In this document: in pieces, positions 2,228-12,915 of the stretch
How the letters are laid out: each line of letters starts with the position of its first letter
Position numbering within the stretch: position 1 is the stretch's first letter
UHGV virus genome: UHGV-0119765
DNA: 26,581 bases
Reading direction: 5' to 3' (one strand)
DNA from: a virus
Translations under genes and position numbers: made by a program
The notes under the pieces: model-generated
Seen by the model: the letters and a program-made list of their open reading frames with translations, nothing else
What the model was told of the DNA's origin: nothing
Databases searched by the model: none

Positions 2228-2982
2228 CACTTCACCTCCTGCGGCGGCTCCGGTAGCAGCATCCAGTGGGTTACACCGCCAATTGGCTCATCGTCGTCGT
2301 ACTCCAATGCGGCTATATAGAACCCGTCACGACGAGAATAAGAAATCCCTGACATTACAATGCCATCCGAAACAACAATAATGTCACCCGTTTCTTCCGG
2401 CATTCGCTCACTACAGCTTATCCAACCATCCGGATTTACCGGAGTTGGTCCATCGAATTCGGGCATGTCAGGACCTTTTCTGATAGCTTTAGCCACCTCC
2501 AGCGGGTCATCGTAAAGCCAGTCGCCAGTTTGTGGGTGATTTGCTTCTGCAAGCTGCGCAGCCCATTCAAGACCATCTTTTTGACCTTGGAGATAATCAA
2601 GCGGCAACTCTTCATGATTACTTGCAGGTTCGGCACTATGAAGCATGGCAGCGCGGCAGGCGTTCCAGCCTCTTACCTCTGCAATAGCGGCAACCGCATC
2701 AACCGCGTACATGCTAAGAGGATTAGGAATTGGTTTTTCTTCCGGTACTACTGGCGCTGGAGGGGTGGCGTAGAGTGGAACTCCTCCCCCTCCACCAGAA
2801 AATTCATTGCGAGCGTTATACTCACGACCATCTGCGTCATCACGCATCCACGCCACCGGCTCTGCTTCCAGCGATGCCAGAGCAATTTCATAAGCACGGC
2901 GCTCAATATTGTCTCGCACGTCCAGGCTGCCGATTCGCTCTTTGATTTCTTTAATCAGTTCTTTGTCGGTAAAAGTGGTCAT
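2227..2982 (-). CDS. DUF551-domain phage protein
   Basis: 251-aa ORF, ATG at 2982 with AGGAG RBS. C-terminal region (WISCSERMPEETGDIIVVSDG...THWMLLPEPP) is typical of the DUF551 family of enterobacterial prophages. Confidence 0.75.
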   Translation of the reverse strand: MTTFTDKELIKEIKERIGSLDVRDNIERRAYEIALASLEAEPVAWMRDDADGREYNARNEFSGGGGGVPLYATPPAPVVPEEKPIPNPLSMYAVDAVAAIAEVRGWNACRAAMLHSAEPASNHEELPLDYLQGQKDGLEWAAQLAEANHPQTGDWLYDDPLEVAKAIRKGPDMPEFDGPTPVNPDGWISCSERMPEETGDIIVVSDGIVMSGISYSRRDGFYIAALEYDDDEPIGGVTHWMLLPEPPQEVK

Positions 2983-2983
2983 G

Positions 2984-3802
2984 TCACTCTCCTTTGATGC
3001 GAATGCCAGCGTCAGACATCATATGCAGATACTCAACTGCATCCTGAACCCATTGACCGCCAATCCCGTAATAGCGATGCGTAATGATGTCGATAGTTAC
3101 TAACGGGTCTTGTTCGATTAACTTCCGCAGAAACTCTTCCAGGTCACCAGTGCAGTGCTTGATGACAGGAGTTTTCCCAGGATGGCGAACAACAAGAAAC
3201 TGATTTCCGACTTCACGGACTTCGTTGCTTTTCAGTTCTGCAATGCGCTTCTCTGAGGCTTCCAGCTTCTCTCGCATATCGTCAACGTACTCGACCAGAG
3301 AACCGCCAGCAGGAATTTCGCACTCCTCGACCAGTTGGAAGTAGATATCAGCTGCGGCCCGTGTGTTGCTATGCCTAGCGTCGCCCATCTCACCTTCACG
3401 AAGAGCATCGCGTTCGGCGGTAAGATTGGCTATTTTGCTGTCTTTGCCTTCCAGCTCAACGCGCAGCTTCCCTACCGTTAGCGCAATATCCTCGTTCTCC
3501 TGGTCGCGGCGTTTGATGTATTGCTGGTTTCTTTCCCGTTCATCCAGTAATGCCAAGACGGTAGCCGGATTAGCTGCGGCGATGAATTCAGCATTGGCCT
3601 GCTGTTCCATTTGGAAATCTTCATCGAAACCGCTTTCAGGATGCGCTCCTTCAATTCTGCAAATGGGAAGATATCCAACAACGTCACGATGAATTAGCGC
3701 ATCATCACAATCAAATCGGCTCTCTCCATATTCGAGCGACCATACACCACACGTTGCTTTTTCTGCCTTGGCACGCAGTGCCTGATAGTCAATCTTGCTC
3801 AC
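2984..3802 (-). CDS. Ea22-like early protein
   Basis: 272-aa ORF with a GTG start at 3802 preceded by AGGAGGcaacca. Coiled-coil-rich middle and conserved termini resemble the Ead/Ea22 family of the lambdoid b2/early-left region. Confidence 0.75.
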   Translation of the reverse strand: MSKIDYQALRAKAEKATCGVWSLEYGESRFDCDDALIHRDVVGYLPICRIEGAHPESGFDEDFQMEQQANAEFIAAANPATVLALLDERERNQQYIKRRDQENEDIALTVGKLRVELEGKDSKIANLTAERDALREGEMGDARHSNTRAAADIYFQLVEECEIPAGGSLVEYVDDMREKLEASEKRIAELKSNEVREVGNQFLVVRHPGKTPVIKHCTGDLEEFLRKLIEQDPLVTIDIITHRYYGIGGQWVQDAVEYLHMMSDAGIRIKGE

Positions 3803-5841: not shown

Positions 5842-6000
5842 TTATGGCGATACCAGAGAGCTTTCTGCGTGTACATGCGTCTCTGTAACTTGCTCTCCTT
5901 CACTGTGGTTGCAAGTGACATGAATATCTCCTTCGTTGCCGATTAATTCTTTTATCTGACGAATGAATTCTTCGTCTGACCAGTTATCCGTAAAACTCAT
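5842..6000 (-). CDS. Hypothetical small protein (52 aa)
   Basis: ATG at 6000 overlaps the upstream stop (ATGA coupling); MSFTDNWSDEEFIRQIKELIGNEGD... The track ORF starts 10 codons earlier. Confidence 0.4.
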   Translation of the reverse strand: MSFTDNWSDEEFIRQIKELIGNEGDIHVTCNHSEGEQVTETHVHAESSLVSP

Positions 6001-6167
6001 GGACGGCCTTGTTGTTTCAAAATATCCCAAAGCTTTTCGAGCAAACTTTTCATTCTTGGTTGTTTAAAGTCTGCTCCGGTTAAAATATTTTTTCGTGAAT
6101 GCTGTACCGATAAAATCGGGTTGAAAGGGCGAACCGATGCCGCCCCTGCAATAGCGAACTGTTGCAT
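5997..6167 (-). CDS. cIII: cIII-like small regulator (56 aa)
   Basis: ATG at 6167 with a strong AGGAG RBS. MQQFAIAG...KLWDILKQ resembles lambda CIII (MQYAIAG...RLIDILNQ) in sequence and in its position in the leftward early operon. Similarity is partial. Confidence 0.5.
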   Translation of the reverse strand: MQQFAIAGAASVRPFNPILSVQHSRKNILTGADFKQPRMKSLLEKLWDILKQQGRP

Positions 6168-6350
6168 AGGATGCTCCTTCTGTTTGATTGCATAACGAAA
6201 ACGCCTCGAGTGAAGCGTTATTGGTATGCATATAAAAAGGCCCCCACATCGGAGGGCAAAGAAGATTTCCAATAATCAGAACAAGTCGGCTCCTGTTTAG
6301 TTACGAGCGACATTGCTCACATAGCAGACTCGTAAATCTGCTATAGGCGC

Positions 6351-6509
6351 TTATTCGCATCGCATGACAACATCAAATTTTTCGAGATTACTTTGTCGCA
6401 ACAATCCTTCTTCTACTCGGTCAGCTTTTCTATAATTATCAAATTCGAAATGTTTAATTACTTCTTTTGTTTCTCGCTCTATAACTTCAACGATGTATCT
6501 CTTATTCAT
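6351..6509 (-). CDS. Hypothetical small protein (52 aa)
   Basis: Not in the ORF track. ATG at 6509 overlaps the upstream stop (TAATG) and follows AGGTGA; MNKRYIVEVIERETKEVIKHFEFDNYRKADRVEEGLLRQSNLEKFDVVMRCE. AT-rich. Confidence 0.45.
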   Translation of the reverse strand: MNKRYIVEVIERETKEVIKHFEFDNYRKADRVEEGLLRQSNLEKFDVVMRCE

Positions 6510-6778
6510 TACTCATCACCTAGGGCTTTTTTGATAGCTTCGCGAGCCTTATTAACAGCTCCATACCATTCTGGATATGTTGTCGTTGTTCTATTTTCGG
6601 CTTGCTTAAGTAATAACTGAAGTGCTTCAAGTAAATCCGGTGCAGCCATAGCCAACCTTCCATTTGCTACGGCCTCTTCTGTTTCTTTACCGGATAGGGC
6701 CATTCCCGGGTGTGAAAATAAAATTAAGCCTGCAAAATTGGCTTCTCGCCAATTTTTCCTAGTACCTTTAAATTCCAT
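6509..6778 (-). CDS. Hypothetical protein (89 aa)
   Basis: ATG at 6778 preceded by GAGG. The track ORF's GTG at 6814 sits immediately after the upstream stop with no RBS, so the ATG is preferred. Confidence 0.5.
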   Translation of the reverse strand: MEFKGTRKNWREANFAGLILFSHPGMALSGKETEEAVANGRLAMAAPDLLEALQLLLKQAENRTTTTYPEWYGAVNKAREAIKKALGDE

Positions 6779-6816
6779 GTTAGCCTCTGTTGTTATGCCA
6801 AAAATAAAGGCCACCG

Positions 6817-7017
6817 TCAGGCAGCCTTGTTATTCTGTTTACCAAGTTCTCTGGCAATCATTGCCGTAGTTCGTATTGCCCATTTATCGACATACTTCCC
6901 ATCCTCCATTACAGGAAGCATTTCTTCAGGCTTAACCATGCATTCCGATTGCAGTTTGCATCCATTGCATCGCTTGAATTGTCCACACCATTGATTTTTA
7001 TCAATAGTCGTAGTCAT
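6817..7017 (-). CDS. Hypothetical small Cys-rich protein (66 aa)
   Basis: ATG at 7017 with AGGA upstream. Four cysteines in a C-x5-C-x2-C-x5-C arrangement (CGQFKRCNGCKLQSEC) suggest a small zinc-binding protein. Confidence 0.55.
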   Translation of the reverse strand: MTTTIDKNQWCGQFKRCNGCKLQSECMVKPEEMLPVMEDGKYVDKWAIRTTAMIARELGKQNNKAA

Positions 7018-7095
7018 AAGGATAGTCCTGGTATTGCTCCATCACATCCTGCGGATGCTCTTCGAACTCTTCAAATTCTTCTTCCATATCTCACC

Positions 7096-7422
7096 TCAAA
7101 TAAGTGGTTTGCTGCCTAATTTCATTTTCTGGCGACCAACACAAGTCACACCCATTTCACTGCGTGGCTTGCTGTACCATGTGCGCTGATTCTTGCGCTC
7201 AATACGTTGCAGGTTGCTTTCAATCTGTTCGTGGTATTCAGCCAGCACCGTAAGGTCTATCGGATTCAGTGCGCTTTCTACTCGTGATTTCGGTTTGCGA
7301 TTCAGCGAGAGAATAGGGCGGTTAACTGGTTTTGCGCTTACCCCAACCAACAGGGGATTTGCTGCTTTCCATTGAGCCTGTTTCTCTGCGCGACGTTCGC
7401 GGCGGCGTGTTTGTGCATCCAT
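7096..7422 (-). CDS. N: Antitermination protein N (lambda type)
   Basis: 108-aa ORF beginning MDAQTRRRERRAEKQAQWKAANPLLVG, the arginine-rich boxB-binding motif of lambda N. Near-identical to lambda N over most of its length as I remember it. Confidence 0.95.
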   Translation of the reverse strand: MDAQTRRRERRAEKQAQWKAANPLLVGVSAKPVNRPILSLNRKPKSRVESALNPIDLTVLAEYHEQIESNLQRIERKNQRTWYSKPRSEMGVTCVGRQKMKLGSKPLI

Positions 7423-7620
7423 CTGGATTCTCCTGTCAGTTAGCTTTGGTGATTGGATGGCCGGCGCTGAACCCCGGCTTACTGGTTAGAGCGCCCGCAC
7501 TACCAGTGACGCTGTCTTGAGGCGCAGATTGGTTACTGCTTGCCATGAGCGCTGTTTATACATTGGTCGAGCATCAGCCTGCTCATTCATCCAATCCCAA
7601 AGCCTTCTGCTTTGAATGCT

Positions 7621-7651
7621 GCCCTTCTTCAGGGCTAAATTTTTAAGAGCC
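7621..7651 (-). promoter_or_regulatory. nutL site (boxA-like plus boxB hairpin)
   Basis: Reverse complement reads GCTCTTAAAAATTTAGCCCTGAAGAAGGGCA: a boxA-like element and the canonical lambda nutL boxB stem-loop GCCCTGAAGAAGGGC. Lies about 35 nt downstream of the proposed pL start and 200 nt upstream of N. Confidence 0.8.
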
Positions 7652-7690
7652 TCACCTTCAATGGTGGTCAGTGCGTCCTGCTGATGGCTA

Positions 7691-7720
7691 AATAGTACGA
7701 TTTGTACTTTATCGAGTCAA
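7691..7720 (-). promoter_or_regulatory. pL-like early-left promoter with overlapping operator palindrome
   Basis: On the minus strand: -35 TTGACT, 17-nt spacer, -10 TACTAT. An AGTAC-N5-GTACT palindrome overlaps the spacer and -10, as expected for an OL operator. Confidence 0.6.
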
Positions 7721-7783
7721 TACAAAATGTTCTAAATATAATTAGTTTTTTATAACGCTTTGTATTTAATGGGTTTATATTTT

Positions 7784-7813
7784 GGAAAAAGAAAACCCGG
7801 CGCTGAGGCCGGG
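7784..7813 (-). terminator. Rho-independent terminator ending the cI / membrane-protein transcript
   Basis: Stem CCCGGC / GCCGGG with a 6-nt loop, followed on the minus strand by UUUUCUUUUUCC. Positioned between the 7836 stop and pL, like lambda's terminator after rexB. Confidence 0.7.
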
Positions 7814-7835
7814 CTTTTAGGGCGGGTTGATGCTC

Positions 7836-8873
7836 TTAACACCCTTTAATGGGAGTTGAGATACGAGATATCATTGCTGATTCAATTATCCCACTTCTGA
7901 CTTTATAGTCACCAAAAAGAGAAATTGAATCAGAAAGTTTCATGCTTTCATAAAGAAGGTCTGTTTCGTCTTTATCTATAAAATCAGTAACAACATAAGC
8001 AGGGAAGGTATAATCAGTGCCAACCTTTTTGCAAGTTACTGTCAGCTTTCCATCTGATTTTTTAATGCCTTCAATTTCAACTTCTTCTGTAAGTTCTTTG
8101 TTGGAAAGTTTCTCACGTGGGTTTCTTATCATTTCGGCAATATCACGCTTATCTAATTCGATCTTTGCCATACCATTAAACTCTACTCTGTCAGCATCTG
8201 AGACGCCTTTCAACACCCCAACCACAGCATTTGAAGTATGGGATTGAATTCCCTCTGAAATCTCCCTCGCAGCTGCTGTGGCAGTATGAGCAGAAAGAAC
8301 TTCAACCATGCCATCTTTAAGCAGTCTCATTTGCTCAGTTTGGCTGTTGGTGTCGTTGAGGCCTTCATCAATCTCAAGTTGCTTCATTTTTTCTATATGG
8401 CGATCTTTTTGTCTCGACTTTATCAGCCAAGCCCCAGTAAGGATCAGCGATATGAGAACGAGACATATAGCTTTCTCTGTTCCAGTCATACCTTGTGTTG
8501 ACCTCTCAAATGCAACACCAAATGAATCAATTACATCCTTTATAGCAACAAGTAGGTCAGTACAGCCAGGCTCAACTTTAAAAATTATCTCAAGCTCTTT
8601 TCTATCACTGTCTTTCAAATGCTTGAGATTATCCGTTCCTCGCCTTACAAGCATAAACGCTTTATAAAGTTCGGTCTGAAACTCGCACATACCTTGAGCT
8701 AAAGAGGACGGTATCGTCCCATTATACCGGTCTGGATCACCATAAATCTTGAAACTTACGTGGTTAACAAAATCAATTTTAATGTCATTGATAGATATTT
8801 GCTGACCTTTCTGAACTCTTTCTAAAAACTCTGAAACGTCGCTTAATGATGAGATATCAATTTGATTGTCCAT
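7836..8873 (-). CDS. Unknown single-pass membrane protein at the rexAB-equivalent position (moron; candidate exclusion/defence gene)
   Basis: Long uninterrupted ORF (345 aa from the ATG at 8873; 355 aa from the alternative TTG at 8903, which overlaps the cI stop). Same strand and immediately downstream of cI. One central hydrophobic helix (KAICLVLISLILTGAWLIKS) flanked by two soluble halves. AT-richer than flanking lambda-like DNA (about 35% GC in a 60-nt sample). No family recognised. Confidence 0.8.
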   Translation of the reverse strand: MDNQIDISSLSDVSEFLERVQKGQQISINDIKIDFVNHVSFKIYGDPDRYNGTIPSSLAQGMCEFQTELYKAFMLVRRGTDNLKHLKDSDRKELEIIFKVEPGCTDLLVAIKDVIDSFGVAFERSTQGMTGTEKAICLVLISLILTGAWLIKSRQKDRHIEKMKQLEIDEGLNDTNSQTEQMRLLKDGMVEVLSAHTATAAAREISEGIQSHTSNAVVGVLKGVSDADRVEFNGMAKIELDKRDIAEMIRNPREKLSNKELTEEVEIEGIKKSDGKLTVTCKKVGTDYTFPAYVVTDFIDKDETDLLYESMKLSDSISLFGDYKVRSGIIESAMISRISTPIKGC

Positions 8874-8895
8874 ATCTTTTCTCAATGTTATTGTG

Positions 8896-9555
8896 TTAAC
8901 CAAACGTCTCTTCTGGCCACTGGCTGGCGATAACTTTCCCTACAACGGAACAGCTATCATTGCATGGGATCATTGGATATTGCGGGTTTAGTGGTTGTAG
9001 GAACACCTGACCGCTATCCCTGATCAGTTTCTTGAAGGTAAACTCGTCACCACCAAGTCTGGCTATGCAGAAATCACCTGGCTCAACAGCCTGCTCAGGG
9101 TCAACGAGAATTAACATCCCGTCAGGAAAGCTTGGCTTGGATCCTGTTGGTGCGGTCATGGAATTACCTTCAACTTCAAGCCAGAACGCACAATCACTAG
9201 CTTTTTTGGTTGTGCTGACCCATCTCTCCGCATCACCTTTGGTAAAGGTTCTAAGCTCAGGCGAGAACATCCCGGCCTGAACATGAGAAAAAACAGGGTA
9301 CTCATGTTGTTTTTTAACGGGGGCAGATGAGTATTCGCCAACAGGTGAAAATGTACCGTCGTGGTTGAATGAGACGTTATCAATACCAAGGTATTTAAAC
9401 ACCACACCAATCTCGTCAAGAGATGGATGACGAGATCCGCGCAACCAGTGACCAATTCCACCCTGCGTCATACCAAGCTCTTCAGCTAACTTCTCTTGAG
9501 TTATGCCGAGCTCTTTCATTCTGGATCTAGCCAGTTCATACCATTTCATTTTCAT
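8896..9555 (-). CDS. cI: CI-type prophage repressor (LexA/S24 peptidase fold)
   Basis: ATG at 9555 ([37 protein letters not shown]...). The C-terminal ~130 aa ([20 protein letters not shown]...[12 protein letters not shown]) match the lambda cI C-terminal domain; the N-terminal HTH domain is different. No SD upstream, consistent with a leaderless PRM transcript. The track ORF extends 54 codons further 5' without support. Confidence 0.9.
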
Positions 9556-9665
9556 ACCATTATTATTACGCTCTGTACTAAAACCATCCATGCACAAGAT
9601 GTATTTTTGTTTGCATTCTAAAAGTACATATCGTATTATTGTTTCATGGTTACTATGGAGGGCAT
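9556..9665. promoter_or_regulatory. OR region: divergent PR (cro) and PRM (cI) promoters with operator sites
   Basis: PR on the plus strand: -35 TTGCAT (9611-9616), 17-nt spacer, -10 TATTAT (9634-9639), GGAGG RBS before cro. GTAC-containing partial palindromes resemble the OL palindrome. PRM placement is tentative. Confidence 0.65.
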
Positions 9666-9881
9666 ATGAGCAACCTACGAAAATATCGAGAGTCACTGAA
9701 TATCTCTCAAACAACACTTGCTAAGGCAGTTGGATGCACACAGGGAGCTATCGGACATTGGGAATCTGGTCGTCGCTTCCCAGACCTTAAAACATGCCGT
9801 GCTCTTGTTGAGTGCCTAAACAAGTTAGGCGCAAAAGTCAGTCTTGATGACGTGTTCCCGCCGGAACACAAAGCCGCTTAA
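9666..9881 (+). CDS. cro: Cro-like XRE-family HTH regulator
   Basis: 71 aa from the ATG at 9666 with GGAGG RBS. HTH region [27 protein letters not shown]. Divergent from cI across the operator region. Confidence 0.8.
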
Positions 9882-9889
9882 GACATTCC

Positions 9890-9921
9890 CGCTCTTACAC
9901 ATCCCAGCCCTGAAAAAGGGC
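9890..9921 (+). promoter_or_regulatory. nutR site (boxA CGCTCTTAC plus boxB GCCCTGAAAAAGGGC)
   Basis: Exact lambda-type boxA and boxB directly after the cro stop. An inverted repeat GTATGCAtttatttTGCATAC follows at 9943-9966, in the lambda tR1 position. Confidence 0.85.
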
Positions 9922-10000
9922 ATCAAATTAAACCACACCTATGGTGTATGCATTTATTTGCATACATTCAATCAATTGTTATCTAAGGAAATACTTACAT

Positions 10001-10297
10001 ATGGTTCGTGCAAACAAACGCAACGAGGCACTACGAATCGAGAGTGCGTTGCTTAACAAAATCGCAATGCTTGGAACTGAGAAGACAGCGGAAGCTGTGG
10101 GAGTTGATAAGTCGCAGATCAGCAGGTGGAAGAGGGATTGGATTCCAAAGTTCTCAATGCTGCTTGCTGTTCTTGAATGGGGCGTCGTTGACGACGATAT
10201 GGCTCGATTGGCACGACAAGTTGCTTCGATTCTCACCAATAAAAAACGCTCGGTGTGCAAGACCGAGCGTTCTGATCAAATCCAGATGGAATTTTAA
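10001..10297 (+). CDS. cII: Transcriptional activator CII (lambda type)
   Basis: MVRANKRNEALRIESALLNKIAMLGTEKTAEAVGVDKSQISRWKRDWIPKFSMLLAVLEWG... is essentially lambda CII. ATG at 10001 preceded by AAGGAA. The track ORF starting at 9941 is an unsupported extension. Confidence 0.95.
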   Translation: MVRANKRNEALRIESALLNKIAMLGTEKTAEAVGVDKSQISRWKRDWIPKFSMLLAVLEWGVVDDDMARLARQVASILTNKKRSVCKTERSDQIQMEF

Positions 10298-10319
10298 CAA
10301 CATCCAACGAGGTAATTAT

Positions 10320-10592
10320 ATGCGAAACAAAGGCTTTAATCCACCTGATACACACAAAGAAGCCAAGCGCTTGCGCTTCCTTCGTTCCATTGATGAAAGA
10401 ACTCAAATCTCTTTTGTGAAAGTTGCCAGAACTGAGCTTCTGAAGGCTGAGGCGAGGGCGTTGCTCCCGTCTCTACCAAAAGAGGAGGGATATACGTTCA
10501 TTCCAAATGCATTTCTGGAAAAGCTGCTCAAAGAAGACATATCCGTAAGTCAGTTTAACGATGTTCTTAAGGTCTTTCGTCAAGGCAGGTAG
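10320..10592 (+). CDS. Hypothetical protein (90 aa) between cII and the replication genes
   Basis: ATG at 10320 with AGGT RBS (MRNKGFNPPDTHKEAKRLRFLRSIDERTQISFVKVART...). It is the in-frame C-terminal part of the 10008..10592 track ORF, whose upstream portion overlaps cII. Confidence 0.55.
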   Translation: MRNKGFNPPDTHKEAKRLRFLRSIDERTQISFVKVARTELLKAEARALLPSLPKEEGYTFIPNAFLEKLLKEDISVSQFNDVLKVFRQGR

Positions 10593-10594
10593 TT

Positions 10595-11542
10595 ATGAGC
10601 AATACAGCAAAAATCTACGATTTCAGCGCCGCACACGAGCGCAGGAGCAACAGGATGGAGAACCAGAAAACTGGTTACATTCCGTTGTACCGGAGCATTC
10701 TGAAACAGTCATGGGCGAAAGATGTTTATCTTCGCACCCTGTGGGAAAACCTTCTCCTGAATGCCGCCAGAAAGCCATACAAAGCGAATTTCAAAGGTCA
10801 TGAATGGCATCTGCAACCCGGTCAACTGGTTGTGACAGCAGCTGATTTAGGTCTTCAGTTATGCGACAGGCATGGCAAGCCGGCAAGCCGTGATCAGGTT
10901 GAGCGGATGCTTCAGGTTTTTGTGAAAGAGGGGATGATCACCATTGATGGAGAGAAGCAAAAAGGTCGTGTGATCACCATCACAAATTACCATGAATATG
11001 CTCAAAAAATGGACAATTTACCCGCACATGAAGCCGCACAAACAACCGCACATGATGCCGCACATGATGAAGCCAGTAATGGCGCGGCTTTCAGCGTACA
11101 TGCCGCACATGAAAGCGCACATGAAGCCGCACAAACAACCGCACATCATGAACAAGAAGGTATTAACAAGAATATAAATAATACCCCCCTACCCCCCAAT
11201 GGGGGAGGCGATGGGCAGGTTAAACCTGAACGTCGCAAGGCAGAACGAATCGACTACGAATCCTTCCTGAACGCCTACAACACCGAAGTCGGTGACAGAC
11301 TGCCACACGCTGTTGCGGTCAACGAGAAACGCAAACGTCGCTTGAAGAAAATCATTCCGCAACTGAAAACGCCAAACGTGGACGGTTTCAGAGCGTATGT
11401 CAGGGCGTTTGTGCATCAGGCCAAGCCGTTTTACTTCGGAGACAACGACACGGGCTGGACGGCCGATTTTGATTACCTGCTGAGGGAAGACTCGTTAACG
11501 GGAGTTCGGGAAGGGAAGTTTGCAGACAGGGGGATTGAATGA
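10595..11542 (+). CDS. Replication initiator, lambda O-like / P22 gene 18-like
   Basis: 315 aa. N-terminus [10 protein letters not shown] resembles lambda O (MTNTAKILNF). An internal iteron array and Pro/Gly linker separate the N and C domains. Immediately followed by, and translationally coupled to, a DnaB-type helicase. Confidence 0.85.
11021..11213 (+). repeat. Origin-like iteron array, AT-rich tract and C/G palindrome inside the O-like gene
   Basis: At least seven direct copies of CGCACA(T/A) (CCGCACATGA / GCGCACATGA / CCGCACAAAC) across 11021-11150, then an AT-rich run (gaacaagaaggtattaacaagaatataaataata) and CCCCCCaatGGGGG. Same architecture as ori-lambda inside O. Confidence 0.7.
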
Positions 11543-12915
11543 GACAGGATATCGAAGCGAGCGTTATCGGTGGCTTGCTGATTGGTGGATTAACACCAAC
11601 CGCCAGCGACGTTCTGGCAACGCTGGAGCCGGAAGCGTTTTCAATTCCGCTCTACCGGAAAGCCTTCGAGGTTATCCGCAAGCAGGCGAGAAACAGAAAC
11701 CTAATCGACGCGCTGATGGTTGCCGAGGCGTGCGGAGAGGAGCATTTCACGTCAATCCTGATGACCAGCAAAAACTGCCCGAGTGCCGCAAACCTGAAGG
11801 GATATGCCGGAATGGTCGCGGATAACTATCACCGCCGTCTGGTGCTGGAAATCATGGATGAAATGCGTGAACCAATTCAGAGCGGAACCATCGACGCATC
11901 GAGTCAGGCGATGGATGAGCTTGTAAAGCGTCTTTCAGCCATCAGAAAGCCCCGTGACGAGGTTAAGCCGGTACGGTTAGGGGAAATCATCACCGACTAC
12001 ACTGACACGCTTGACAGGCGCCTGAGGAACGGAGAAGAGTCAGATACCCTGAAGACCGGAATCGAAGAACTTGACGCTATCACCGGAGGGATGAATGCAG
12101 AAGACCTGGTGATTATCGCCGCTCGTCCTGGTATGGGGAAAACCGAACTGGCGCTGAAGATTGCCGAAGGCGTTGCAAGCCGCGTTATCCCTGGTTCTGA
12201 CGTTCGGCGCGGAGTGTTGATTTTCTCGATGGAAATGAGCGCATTGCAGATTGCAGAGCGAAGCATTGCCAACGCCGGGAGAATGTCGGTTAGCGTACTG
12301 CGAAATCCTGCATCGATGGATGACGAAGGCTGGGCGCGTGTTGCTAACGGCATGAGTCAGCTTGCAGATTTGGATGTATGGGTAGTCGATGCCTCGCGGT
12401 TATCGGTCGAAGAAATTCGCTCAATCGCAGAAAGGCACAAACAGGAAAATCCAAACCTGTCACTCATCATGGCGGATTATCTTGGCCTGATTGAGAAGCC
12501 GAAAGCAGACCGCAACGACCTCGCAATTGCTCACATCTCCGGAAGCATGAAGGCGATGGCGAAAGACCTGAAAACACCGGTTATTTCCCTGAGTCAGCTT
12601 TCACGCGATGTTGAGAAGCGACCAAACAAGCGCCCGACAAACGCAGATTTGCGTGATTCAGGAAGCATTGAACAGGACGCAGACTCAATCATCATGCTCT
12701 ATCGGGAAGCTGTATATGACGAGAACAGTAGCGCCGCGCCATTTGCTGAAATCATCGTGACGAAAAACCGTTTTGGCTCACTTGGTACGGTTTACCAGCG
12801 GTTCTGCAACGGACACTTTGTTGCGTGTGACCAGGATGAAGCCAGACAGATTTGCACAGCATCAAATGCACCTGCTGCGCGTGGCAGACGATATGCACAA
12901 GGGGCTGACGTATGA
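11539..12915 (+). CDS. Replicative DNA helicase, DnaB family (P22 gene 12-like)
   Basis: 458 aa. Walker [18 protein letters not shown], plus conserved DnaB motifs ([23 protein letters not shown]). ATG overlaps the O-like stop (ATGA). Confidence 0.95.

Follow-up and report, generated by a model that had tools for sequence, protein, structure and literature searches.

In phage lambda, the switch region is ordered N, nutL, PL/OL, Timm, an accessory gene, cI, OR (three sites), cro, nutR and cII, and the roles of the Ala-Gly bond, of the Ser and Lys residues and of the oligomerisation surfaces of its repressor cI are well established. Repressors that resemble lambda cI over a part of their length have been described in several other phages. 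In Salmonella phage epsilon34, the C-terminal part of the repressor is about 80% identical to those of lambda and HK97 and the N-terminal part about 50% identical to those of L, VT2-Sa and Nil2, and WTACRAWWTGTAT, with the consensus WTAC..GTAT, was proposed as its operator (PMC2629481). BAA2326, a repressor of a Shiga toxin (Stx) phage, is 61% identical to lambda cI and is found with a different OR (PMC5977221). For VT2-Sa, a passage of PMC10742460 cites Fattah et al. for a homology of VT2-Sa CI to lambda CI that is high at the C-terminus and low at the N-terminus, and for the two phages being cross-immune; the same paper treats VT2-Sa as having six 17-bp operators. Here we analysed the cI-cro immunity region of the UHGV virus genome UHGV-0119765, a stretch of 26,581 nucleotides (hereafter, the window), which has the same layout as lambda.

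The region is very probably the switch between lysis and lysogeny in a P22-like E. coli prophage with the immunity specificity of VT2-Sakai and Nil2, combining a hybrid S24 repressor with its cognate Cro and operators, and the joint in the linker of this repressor was inherited. Such a mosaic cI is real but ordinary, being already known from the literature and from GenBank annotation. The initial annotation had placed the feature at a span ending at 9665, which includes OR besides cI.

A lambda-type and a non-lambda part in cI

Pfam searches of the cI product identified an N-terminal HTH_3 domain (residues 11-58, E=8e-11) and a C-terminal Peptidase_S24 domain (PF00717, E=9e-29, over the full profile length). 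The segments VQAGMF (Ala-Gly), EGNSM (Ser) and FKKL (Lys) were identical to those of lambda cI in the alignment. The protein therefore has the features of the LexA/lambda cI family, that is, an N-terminal helix-turn-helix (HTH) and a C-terminal S24 domain with an Ala-Gly scissile bond and a Ser/Lys dyad.

We compared cI with lambda cI domain by domain. Results of BLASTP showed that 134 of 136 residues are identical in the C-terminal part, from EYPVF through ...PEETFG, while the N-terminal 83 residues gave a weak alignment; the lambda type of the C-terminal domain, already proposed in the initial annotation, is therefore confirmed. At the DNA level, positions 8900-9305 are 94.6% identical to lambda 37231-37636. 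The base-level alignment breaks at 9305, and from there upstream through 9887 (N-terminal domain, OR and cro) no DNA homology to lambda was detected. In a four-way alignment, the matches to lambda per 30 columns rise from 12-13 to 28-30 at the (H/Y)EYPVF codons. An independent search gave the same position, as E. coli genomes in which a lambda-type N-terminal domain accompanies this 345-aa gene and C-terminal part match only up to query position 1706 (9305 in the window). The alignment to lambda cI thus places an abrupt break at 9305, and a uniform divergence of cI from lambda was ruled out by the sliding-identity profile. The joint falls in the linker between the two domains, some 10 residues upstream of the Ala-Gly self-cleavage bond. 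The lambda-type module includes the cleavage site, both catalytic residues (Ser and Lys) and the oligomerisation surfaces.

Looking at 120 homologues by domain-wise identity, we found the lambda-type C-terminal domain (78-97% identical) on at least four N-terminal classes, namely the class of the window, one at about 52%, one at about 43%, and classes at 20-30% that include lambda's. The N-terminal class of the window is also joined to a C-terminal domain that is just 57% identical. All classes share a (F/Y)(E/D/N)... block at the junction, which is plausible as a substrate for homologous exchange. Calling the C-terminal part lambda's domain is a naming convenience for what is a shared module.

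The same data bear on a cI without any joint, in which the DNA-binding domain would simply have diverged faster, under diversifying selection for a new specificity. The N-terminal domains of the window and of lambda are indeed distant homologues, both HTH_3, with a match at E about 1e-3 (phmmer), and DNA-binding domains of repressors are known for fast evolution. However, DNA identity passes from about 40% to about 95% within a few nucleotides, synonymous sites and the non-coding OR included, and the linkers differ in length. Moreover, one N-terminal class occurs on the 57%-identical C-terminal domain and the N-terminal domains found on one C-terminal domain have 20-55% identity, a discordance that requires exchange and not rate variation. 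We therefore consider faster divergence extremely unlikely.

A hybrid cI could have been made in this very prophage, by a recent recombination between a lambda-immunity phage and one of VT2-Sakai type giving a new chimeric repressor. In agreement with such an event, positions 7788-9305 align unbroken, at 98.6%, to the lambda-immunity phage mEp332 and the alignment ends exactly at the joint, which is also the breakpoint of the E. coli genomes whose N-terminal domain is lambda-type. The high overall identity to mEp332 is, however, due to the 345-aa gene. When the 410-bp C-terminal segment of cI was taken separately, it was 98.0% identical to 683R2, which is already chimeric, but just 94.6% to mEp332, 94.1% to lambda and 92.4% to the Stx1 phage. 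As the closest segment is that of a chimera, the chimera was inherited and not made in this genome; the 6% DNA divergence of the C-terminal part from lambda further indicates that it is old and was inherited as a unit. In addition, the same joint is present in all relatives of the immunity type, and cI is 99% identical to a protein cluster (90% identity) with 1686 member sequences. A recent origin is thus very unlikely, and the joint is best read from these comparisons as an old domain-boundary recombination in the linker, ancestral to the VT2-Sakai/Nil2 immunity type. Concerning the immunity-cassette swap with a joint inside cI claimed by the initial annotation, the sharp joint at 9305 stands, while the swap as an event in this genome does not, since the whole immunity type shares the joint.

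Immunity type, Cro and operators

We searched for relatives of the 986-bp cI-cro segment and found matches in 101 phage records. Identity is 98-99% in the P22-like coliphages vB_EcoP-683R2, 720R6, Dewey, Louie and phi458, and about 93% in Nil2, the Stx1 phage AP005153, Stx2-II, 2851 and PA-series phages. The VT2-Sakai sequence has 2 differences from AP005153 in 987 bases, and its identity to the window is 93.1%. The DNA-binding domain is 96.4% identical over 83 residues to that of the Stx-phage cI, with differences only at residues 47, 48 and 61, so that residues 1-46, including the HTH region, are identical; over the whole protein, 7 of 219 residues differ from the Stx1-phage cI. Cro shares 70 of its 71 residues with the Stx1-phage Cro, and all 71 with that of 683R2. 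The six operators also coincide with those annotated in AP005153 (60 of 61 half-site columns identical to the Stx1 phage). With residues 1-46 of cI identical and a single difference in Cro, the same specificity as in the Stx1 phage is predicted. The assignment to the VT2-Sakai/Nil2 immunity group also predicts that the prophage is homoimmune with clinically important Stx2a phages.

VT2-Sakai (Sp5, AP000363), AP005153, Stx2-II, Nil2 and 2851 all have the cI-OR-cro module, the six operators and the joint of the window. The Stx phages differ from it in the surroundings: they have HK97-like N and HK022-like cII and O in place of the lambda-type N, nut and cII of the window, their OL is just 78% identical overall, and they carry other open reading frames (ORFs) between cI and OL, where the window has the 345-aa gene. 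Close relatives thus vary in the flanks and in the rex slot, and the module from OL to cro moves between different N/cII backgrounds. Phages 683R2, 720R6, Dewey, Louie and phi458 have the same arrangement as the window and are 98-99% identical across cI, OR, cro, nutR and cII as well as N, nutL, OL and Timm. The phage mEp332 (EF120456) and the window have in common Timm, the 345-aa gene and the C-terminal part of cI as far as 9305 (98.6% over 1518 bp), together with lambda-type N, nutL, nutR and cII; the N-terminal domain, operators and Cro of mEp332 are lambda's, and those of the window are of VT2-Sakai type. Among 5426 complete E. coli genomes, parts of the region were present in 1411, and only 7, from human, fox, pig and cattle isolates, combined the 345-aa gene, the hybrid cI and cro (>=99.7%).

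We also noticed that the VT2-Sakai deposit AP000363 has, in its cI (2901-3560), an in-frame TAG at codon 30 (MT*GG), where the near-identical Stx1 phage has CAG; this explains the shortened VT2-Sakai cI annotation.

Other lambdoid immunity types were also compared. The next-nearest N-terminal domains, about 54% identical, belong to epsilon34, g341c and phage L. These Salmonella repressors have the same architecture, with about 80% identity to lambda and HK97 in the C-terminal part, and the operator proposed for epsilon34 is of the same TAC...GTA type as in the window; as their N-terminal domains are just about 54% identical, their specificity is predicted to be different, and the host is different as well. 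In contrast to the VT2-Sakai/Nil2 type, the 434 and P22 c2 types did not fit: in phmmer comparisons the N-terminal domain matched the 434 repressor at E=0.27 and P22 C2 at E=0.35, and Cro matched P22 C2 at E=0.006 and the 434 repressor at E about 0.1. Identities with 434, P22 or lambda were rejected for the N-terminal domain and Cro, as the PDB sequence search returned no closely related solved structure for either and these repressors are only remote HTH_3 relatives.

Lambda immunity was found neither in the operators nor in the N-terminal domain nor in Cro. Identity to the lambda cI cluster P0034 is about 20% in the DNA-binding domain, the operators are spaced differently, another gene stands in place of rexAB, and the lambda operators are 17-bp sites (TATCACCGC...GGTGATA) whereas those of the window are 15-bp sites of the form AGTAC-N5-GTACT. 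On the other side, in the C-terminal domain, at the cleavage site and in the catalytic residues there is essentially no difference from lambda, and the geometry of OR2 and PRM is similar. A scan with the lambda operator pattern had no match in OL or OR, and only chance-level matches outside. Together with the absence of lambda DNA homology at 7687-7787 and 9306-9887, this bears out the non-lambda nature of the HTH domain, cro and operators suggested by the initial annotation.

Cro matched HTH_3 in Pfam (E=1.4e-12) and is 35% identical to the N-terminal domain of cI (E=5e-13), with TQGGIGHW in its HTH against TQGAIGHW in that of cI. Its top PDB match in a sequence search was an unnamed 'lambda repressor-like protein' (28tn, E=2e-16). 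Cro is a paralogue of the cI N-terminal domain, an all-HTH_3 protein unlike lambda Cro, which has its own fold. Nearly the same HTH regions in Cro and cI are expected if both read the same operators.

The operators have the form A(G/T/A)TAC-N5-GTA(C/T)T, 15 bp long, with three sites at OL and three at OR (Table 1). They were obtained by mapping the putative operators of AP005153 (three each side) onto the window, plus one further site read from the sequence. The palindrome with at most one mismatch has 3 matches in the 26.6 kb, all in OL/OR, for 0.22 expected, and none of 100 shuffles reached 3. OR3, with 1 mismatch, is as good as OR1, while OR2 and OL3 have 3 mismatches each. Moreover, differences from the 93%-identical Stx1 phage are concentrated outside the half-sites, with 1 of 61 columns differing in half-sites, 6 of 30 in spacers and 22 of 56 between operators (Fisher P=6e-7). 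The operators had been described as GTAC-centred palindromes; they are palindromic, but two GTAC-containing half-sites flank a 5-bp spacer, so that the GTAC is not at the centre.

This conservation also bears on the possibility that the locus is a decayed, non-functional repressor of a cryptic prophage, with operators as relics. Such decay does occur, as the cI stop of the VT2-Sakai deposit illustrates. Here, however, the ORFs of cI, cro, N and cII are all intact, the operator half-sites are conserved, and the C-terminal part of cI has just 2 amino acid changes in 136 residues despite 6% DNA divergence, which indicates purifying selection. In addition, modules 98-99% identical are present in records deposited as phage genomes (683R2, Dewey, Louie, phi458), and the window holds the full P22-like gene set. 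We find decay scarcely credible.

Proposed working of the switch

By considering these results together, we propose that cI, a self-cleaving S24 repressor of the LexA/lambda cI family, would bind the six operators through its HTH_3 domain. Bound at OL and OR, it would shut off PL and PR. When at OR2 (-43), cI would activate its own promoter PRM, and OR3 would permit negative autoregulation. As the C-terminal two-thirds of the protein are essentially lambda cI, dimerisation, pairwise cooperativity and RecA-stimulated self-cleavage are expected to proceed as in lambda. Cro would read the same operators as cI. In this scheme the sequence relationships, the position of the joint and the enrichment and conservation of the operators were directly computed, while DNA binding, PRM activation, leaderless translation and cleavage are what we infer from them.

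PRM was placed by mapping the putative maintenance promoter of AP005153 onto the window and by analogy with the lambda and mEp332 annotations. A TAATAA -10 candidate was read from the sequence 7 nt upstream of the ATG at 9555, and 9 nt separate this ATG from the OR3 site (17 bp) annotated in AP005153 (window 9564-9580). Taking the A of this ATG as the transcription start, the centres of OR2 and OR3 lie at -43 and -17, and lambda coordinates give -42 and -19. Distances this close to lambda's make the leaderless PRM transcript suggested by the initial annotation a geometrically reasonable proposal, and a cI transcript starting at or near ATG 9555 is geometrically plausible by this analogy.

The likely start of cI is this same ATG 9555, giving 219 aa and a protein that begins MKMKWYEL. 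Two other ATGs are in frame, one at 9549, two codons downstream, and one at 9591. The second ATG is preceded by a well-spaced AAGGA or AAGGG in relatives, and by AATGG in the window. The 231-aa models of PGAP and AP005153 begin at 9591, that is, inside OR2 and upstream of the predicted PRM start. The 231-aa model is probably over-extended, with its 12 additional codons overlapping OR3 and not translated from the maintenance transcript.

Several observations weigh against this account of the switch. PRM was undetected by the consensus promoter scan. The choice of the cI start is ambiguous between 9555 and 9549, and databases use 9591. The matches of OR2 and OL3 to the palindrome are weak, so their register depends on conservation and earlier annotation. 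OR1 and OR2 are spaced by 32 bp from centre to centre, whereas OL1 and OL2 are 25 bp apart and the lambda spacing is 24 bp; this makes lambda-like pairwise cooperativity at OR uncertain. Finally, PMC10742460 assayed lambda CI, and not VT2-Sa CI, on the VT2-Sa operators, and a literature search for mEp332 and AP005153 found no paper on cognate repressor-operator binding in the VT2-Sakai/Nil2 immunity type.

Considering the palindrome matches of OR3 and OR2 and the spacing at OR, the balance between cooperativity and autoregulation may be different from lambda's, resembling the 'hair-trigger' model of Stx phages (PMC5977221). The identity to lambda cI in 134 of 136 C-terminal residues makes mixed oligomers with lambda-type repressors conceivable. 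We therefore put forward, as an unlikely extension of the scheme, that cI could assemble with lambda-type repressors (lambda, mEp332-like) of co-resident prophages into mixed dimers or into cooperative tetramers and octamers, and that an OR3 matching the palindrome as well as OR1, with OR2 as the weakest site, could give a hair-trigger to a non-Stx prophage. If this were true, mixed oligomers would couple the stability and the SOS induction thresholds of heteroimmune prophages, and they could underlie the partial cross-immunity of VT2-Sa and lambda that the cited passage attributes to Fattah et al. Such an OR could, moreover, confer on a P22-like prophage without Stx the low-repressor hair-trigger proposed for Stx phages.

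The locus has small value as a discovery, but it is a clean example of how lambdoid switches evolve by modules, through recombination in the linker and movement of the cassette. Its annotation value lies in fixing the coordinates of operators and promoters, and in the suggestion that the 231-aa cI model, starting inside OR2, is too long.

Flanking elements and the rexAB slot

Flanking elements were compared with lambda DNA over the 6-11 kb part of the window. N (7121-7451) is 94% identical to lambda. The nutL leader (7596-7686) is 96.7% identical to lambda 35494-35583, a stretch that includes the annotated NutL, and the match ends just short of OL1. OL itself (7687-7787) has no lambda DNA homology. 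Identity resumes at Timm (7788-7813), which matches the sequence downstream of rexB in lambda at 100%, and the region of nutR and cII (9888-10293) begins just past the cro stop and is 96.3% identical to lambda 38247-38649. The lambda type of N, nutL, nutR and cII, as initially annotated, is therefore correct. A scan of 6000-12000 against Rfam (E<=0.1) gave no matches.

Table 1. Positions of the genes, operators and predicted signals of the immunity region in the window
Feature	Coordinates	Strand	Remarks
N antiterminator, lambda-type	7096..7422	-	94% DNA identity to lambda N; translations compared
nutL, lambda-type	7621..7651	-	boxB GCCCTGAAGAAGGGC, boxA GCTCTTAA
PL candidate	7692..7720	-	TTGACT-17-TACTAT, consensus scan; overlaps OL1, touches OL2
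OL1	7694..7708		AGTACgatttGTACT, perfect palindrome; overlaps PL -10 and spacer
OL2	7719..7733		AATACaaaatGTTCT; touches PL -35
OL3	7752..7766		ATAACgctttGTATT; conserved in comparison with Stx1 phage; AP005153 annotates three OL operators
Timm-like intrinsic terminator, ends the cI operon	7792..7817	-	terminator scan; annotated Timm in mEp332
345-aa gene, function unknown, in the rexAB slot	7836..8873	-	22 nt downstream of cI; between cI and Timm
cI prophage repressor	8896..9555	-	219 aa + stop; HTH_3 N-terminal and Peptidase_S24 C-terminal
cI, lambda-type part	8896..9305	-	distal linker with Ala-Gly cleavage site, S24 oligomerisation/self-cleavage domain
cI, non-lambda part	9306..9555	-	VT2-Sakai/Nil2-type HTH_3 DNA-binding domain and proximal linker, 83 aa
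PRM region, inferred	9556..9590	-	TAATAA-type -10 overlapping OR3 edge; weak -35 TGGATG abutting OR2
OR3	9565..9579		ATTACgctctGTACT; 1 mismatch to palindrome; putative AP005153 operator; identical in 4/4 relatives compared
OR2	9591..9605		TGCACaagatGTATT; weakest palindrome match; putative AP005153 operator; half-sites kept, spacer variable in comparison with Stx1 phage
PR candidate	9610..9639	+	TTTGCA-18-TATTAT, promoter scan; upstream of cro; overlaps OR1
OR1	9623..9637		AGTACatatcGTATT; overlaps PR spacer and -10
cro	9666..9881	+	71 aa + stop; divergent from cI; Shine-Dalgarno GGAGGG
nutR, lambda-type	9890..9921	+	boxA CGCTCTTA, boxB GCCCTGAAAAAGGGC
cII, lambda-type	10001..10297	+	PRE TTGC-N6-TTGC at 5' end, opposite strand

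The window as a whole is a P22-like prophage (Lederbergvirus-type, similar to IME10, HK620 and CUS-3) and not lambda, with integrase, early-left genes, replication, nin, Q, lysis and head genes. In E. coli JNQH497, a near-identical immunity region is part of a prophage adjoining the tRNA-Thr gene by proA.

We also looked at the 345-aa gene, which belongs to the immunity operon by position and is not part of the hybrid repressor. It is a homologue of mEp33204 of mEp332, falling within the 7788-9305 stretch that is 98.6% identical to that phage, and is a member of PHROG 6191 (unknown function). The gene had no Pfam or PADLOC match, and homologues were found in only 11 clusters (E. coli, Yersinia, Morganella). 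The protein has a hydrophobic helix near residues 131-148. AlphaFold gave a pLDDT of 33 from the single sequence and of 60 from the 11-sequence alignment; the latter model has a C-terminal beta-barrel, for which Foldseek against PDB returned weak OB-fold matches only (E about 0.01), too weak to name a function for the protein. The gene is a candidate for a prophage-expressed exclusion or defence gene. The slot that it occupies, between Timm and the cI stop (7813-8894), is about 30 bp long in 683R2 (2968-2999), holds an unrelated 348-aa ORF in phi458 (2726-3772) and rexAB in lambda. With flanks conserved in 683R2, phi458, the window and lambda, the slot is a variable cargo site.

Finally, the O-like replication protein (10595-11542, + strand) has a short repeated histidine/alanine-rich motif in its middle. 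By analogy with lambda O, the repeat may correspond to iteron-bearing ori DNA lying within the coding sequence.

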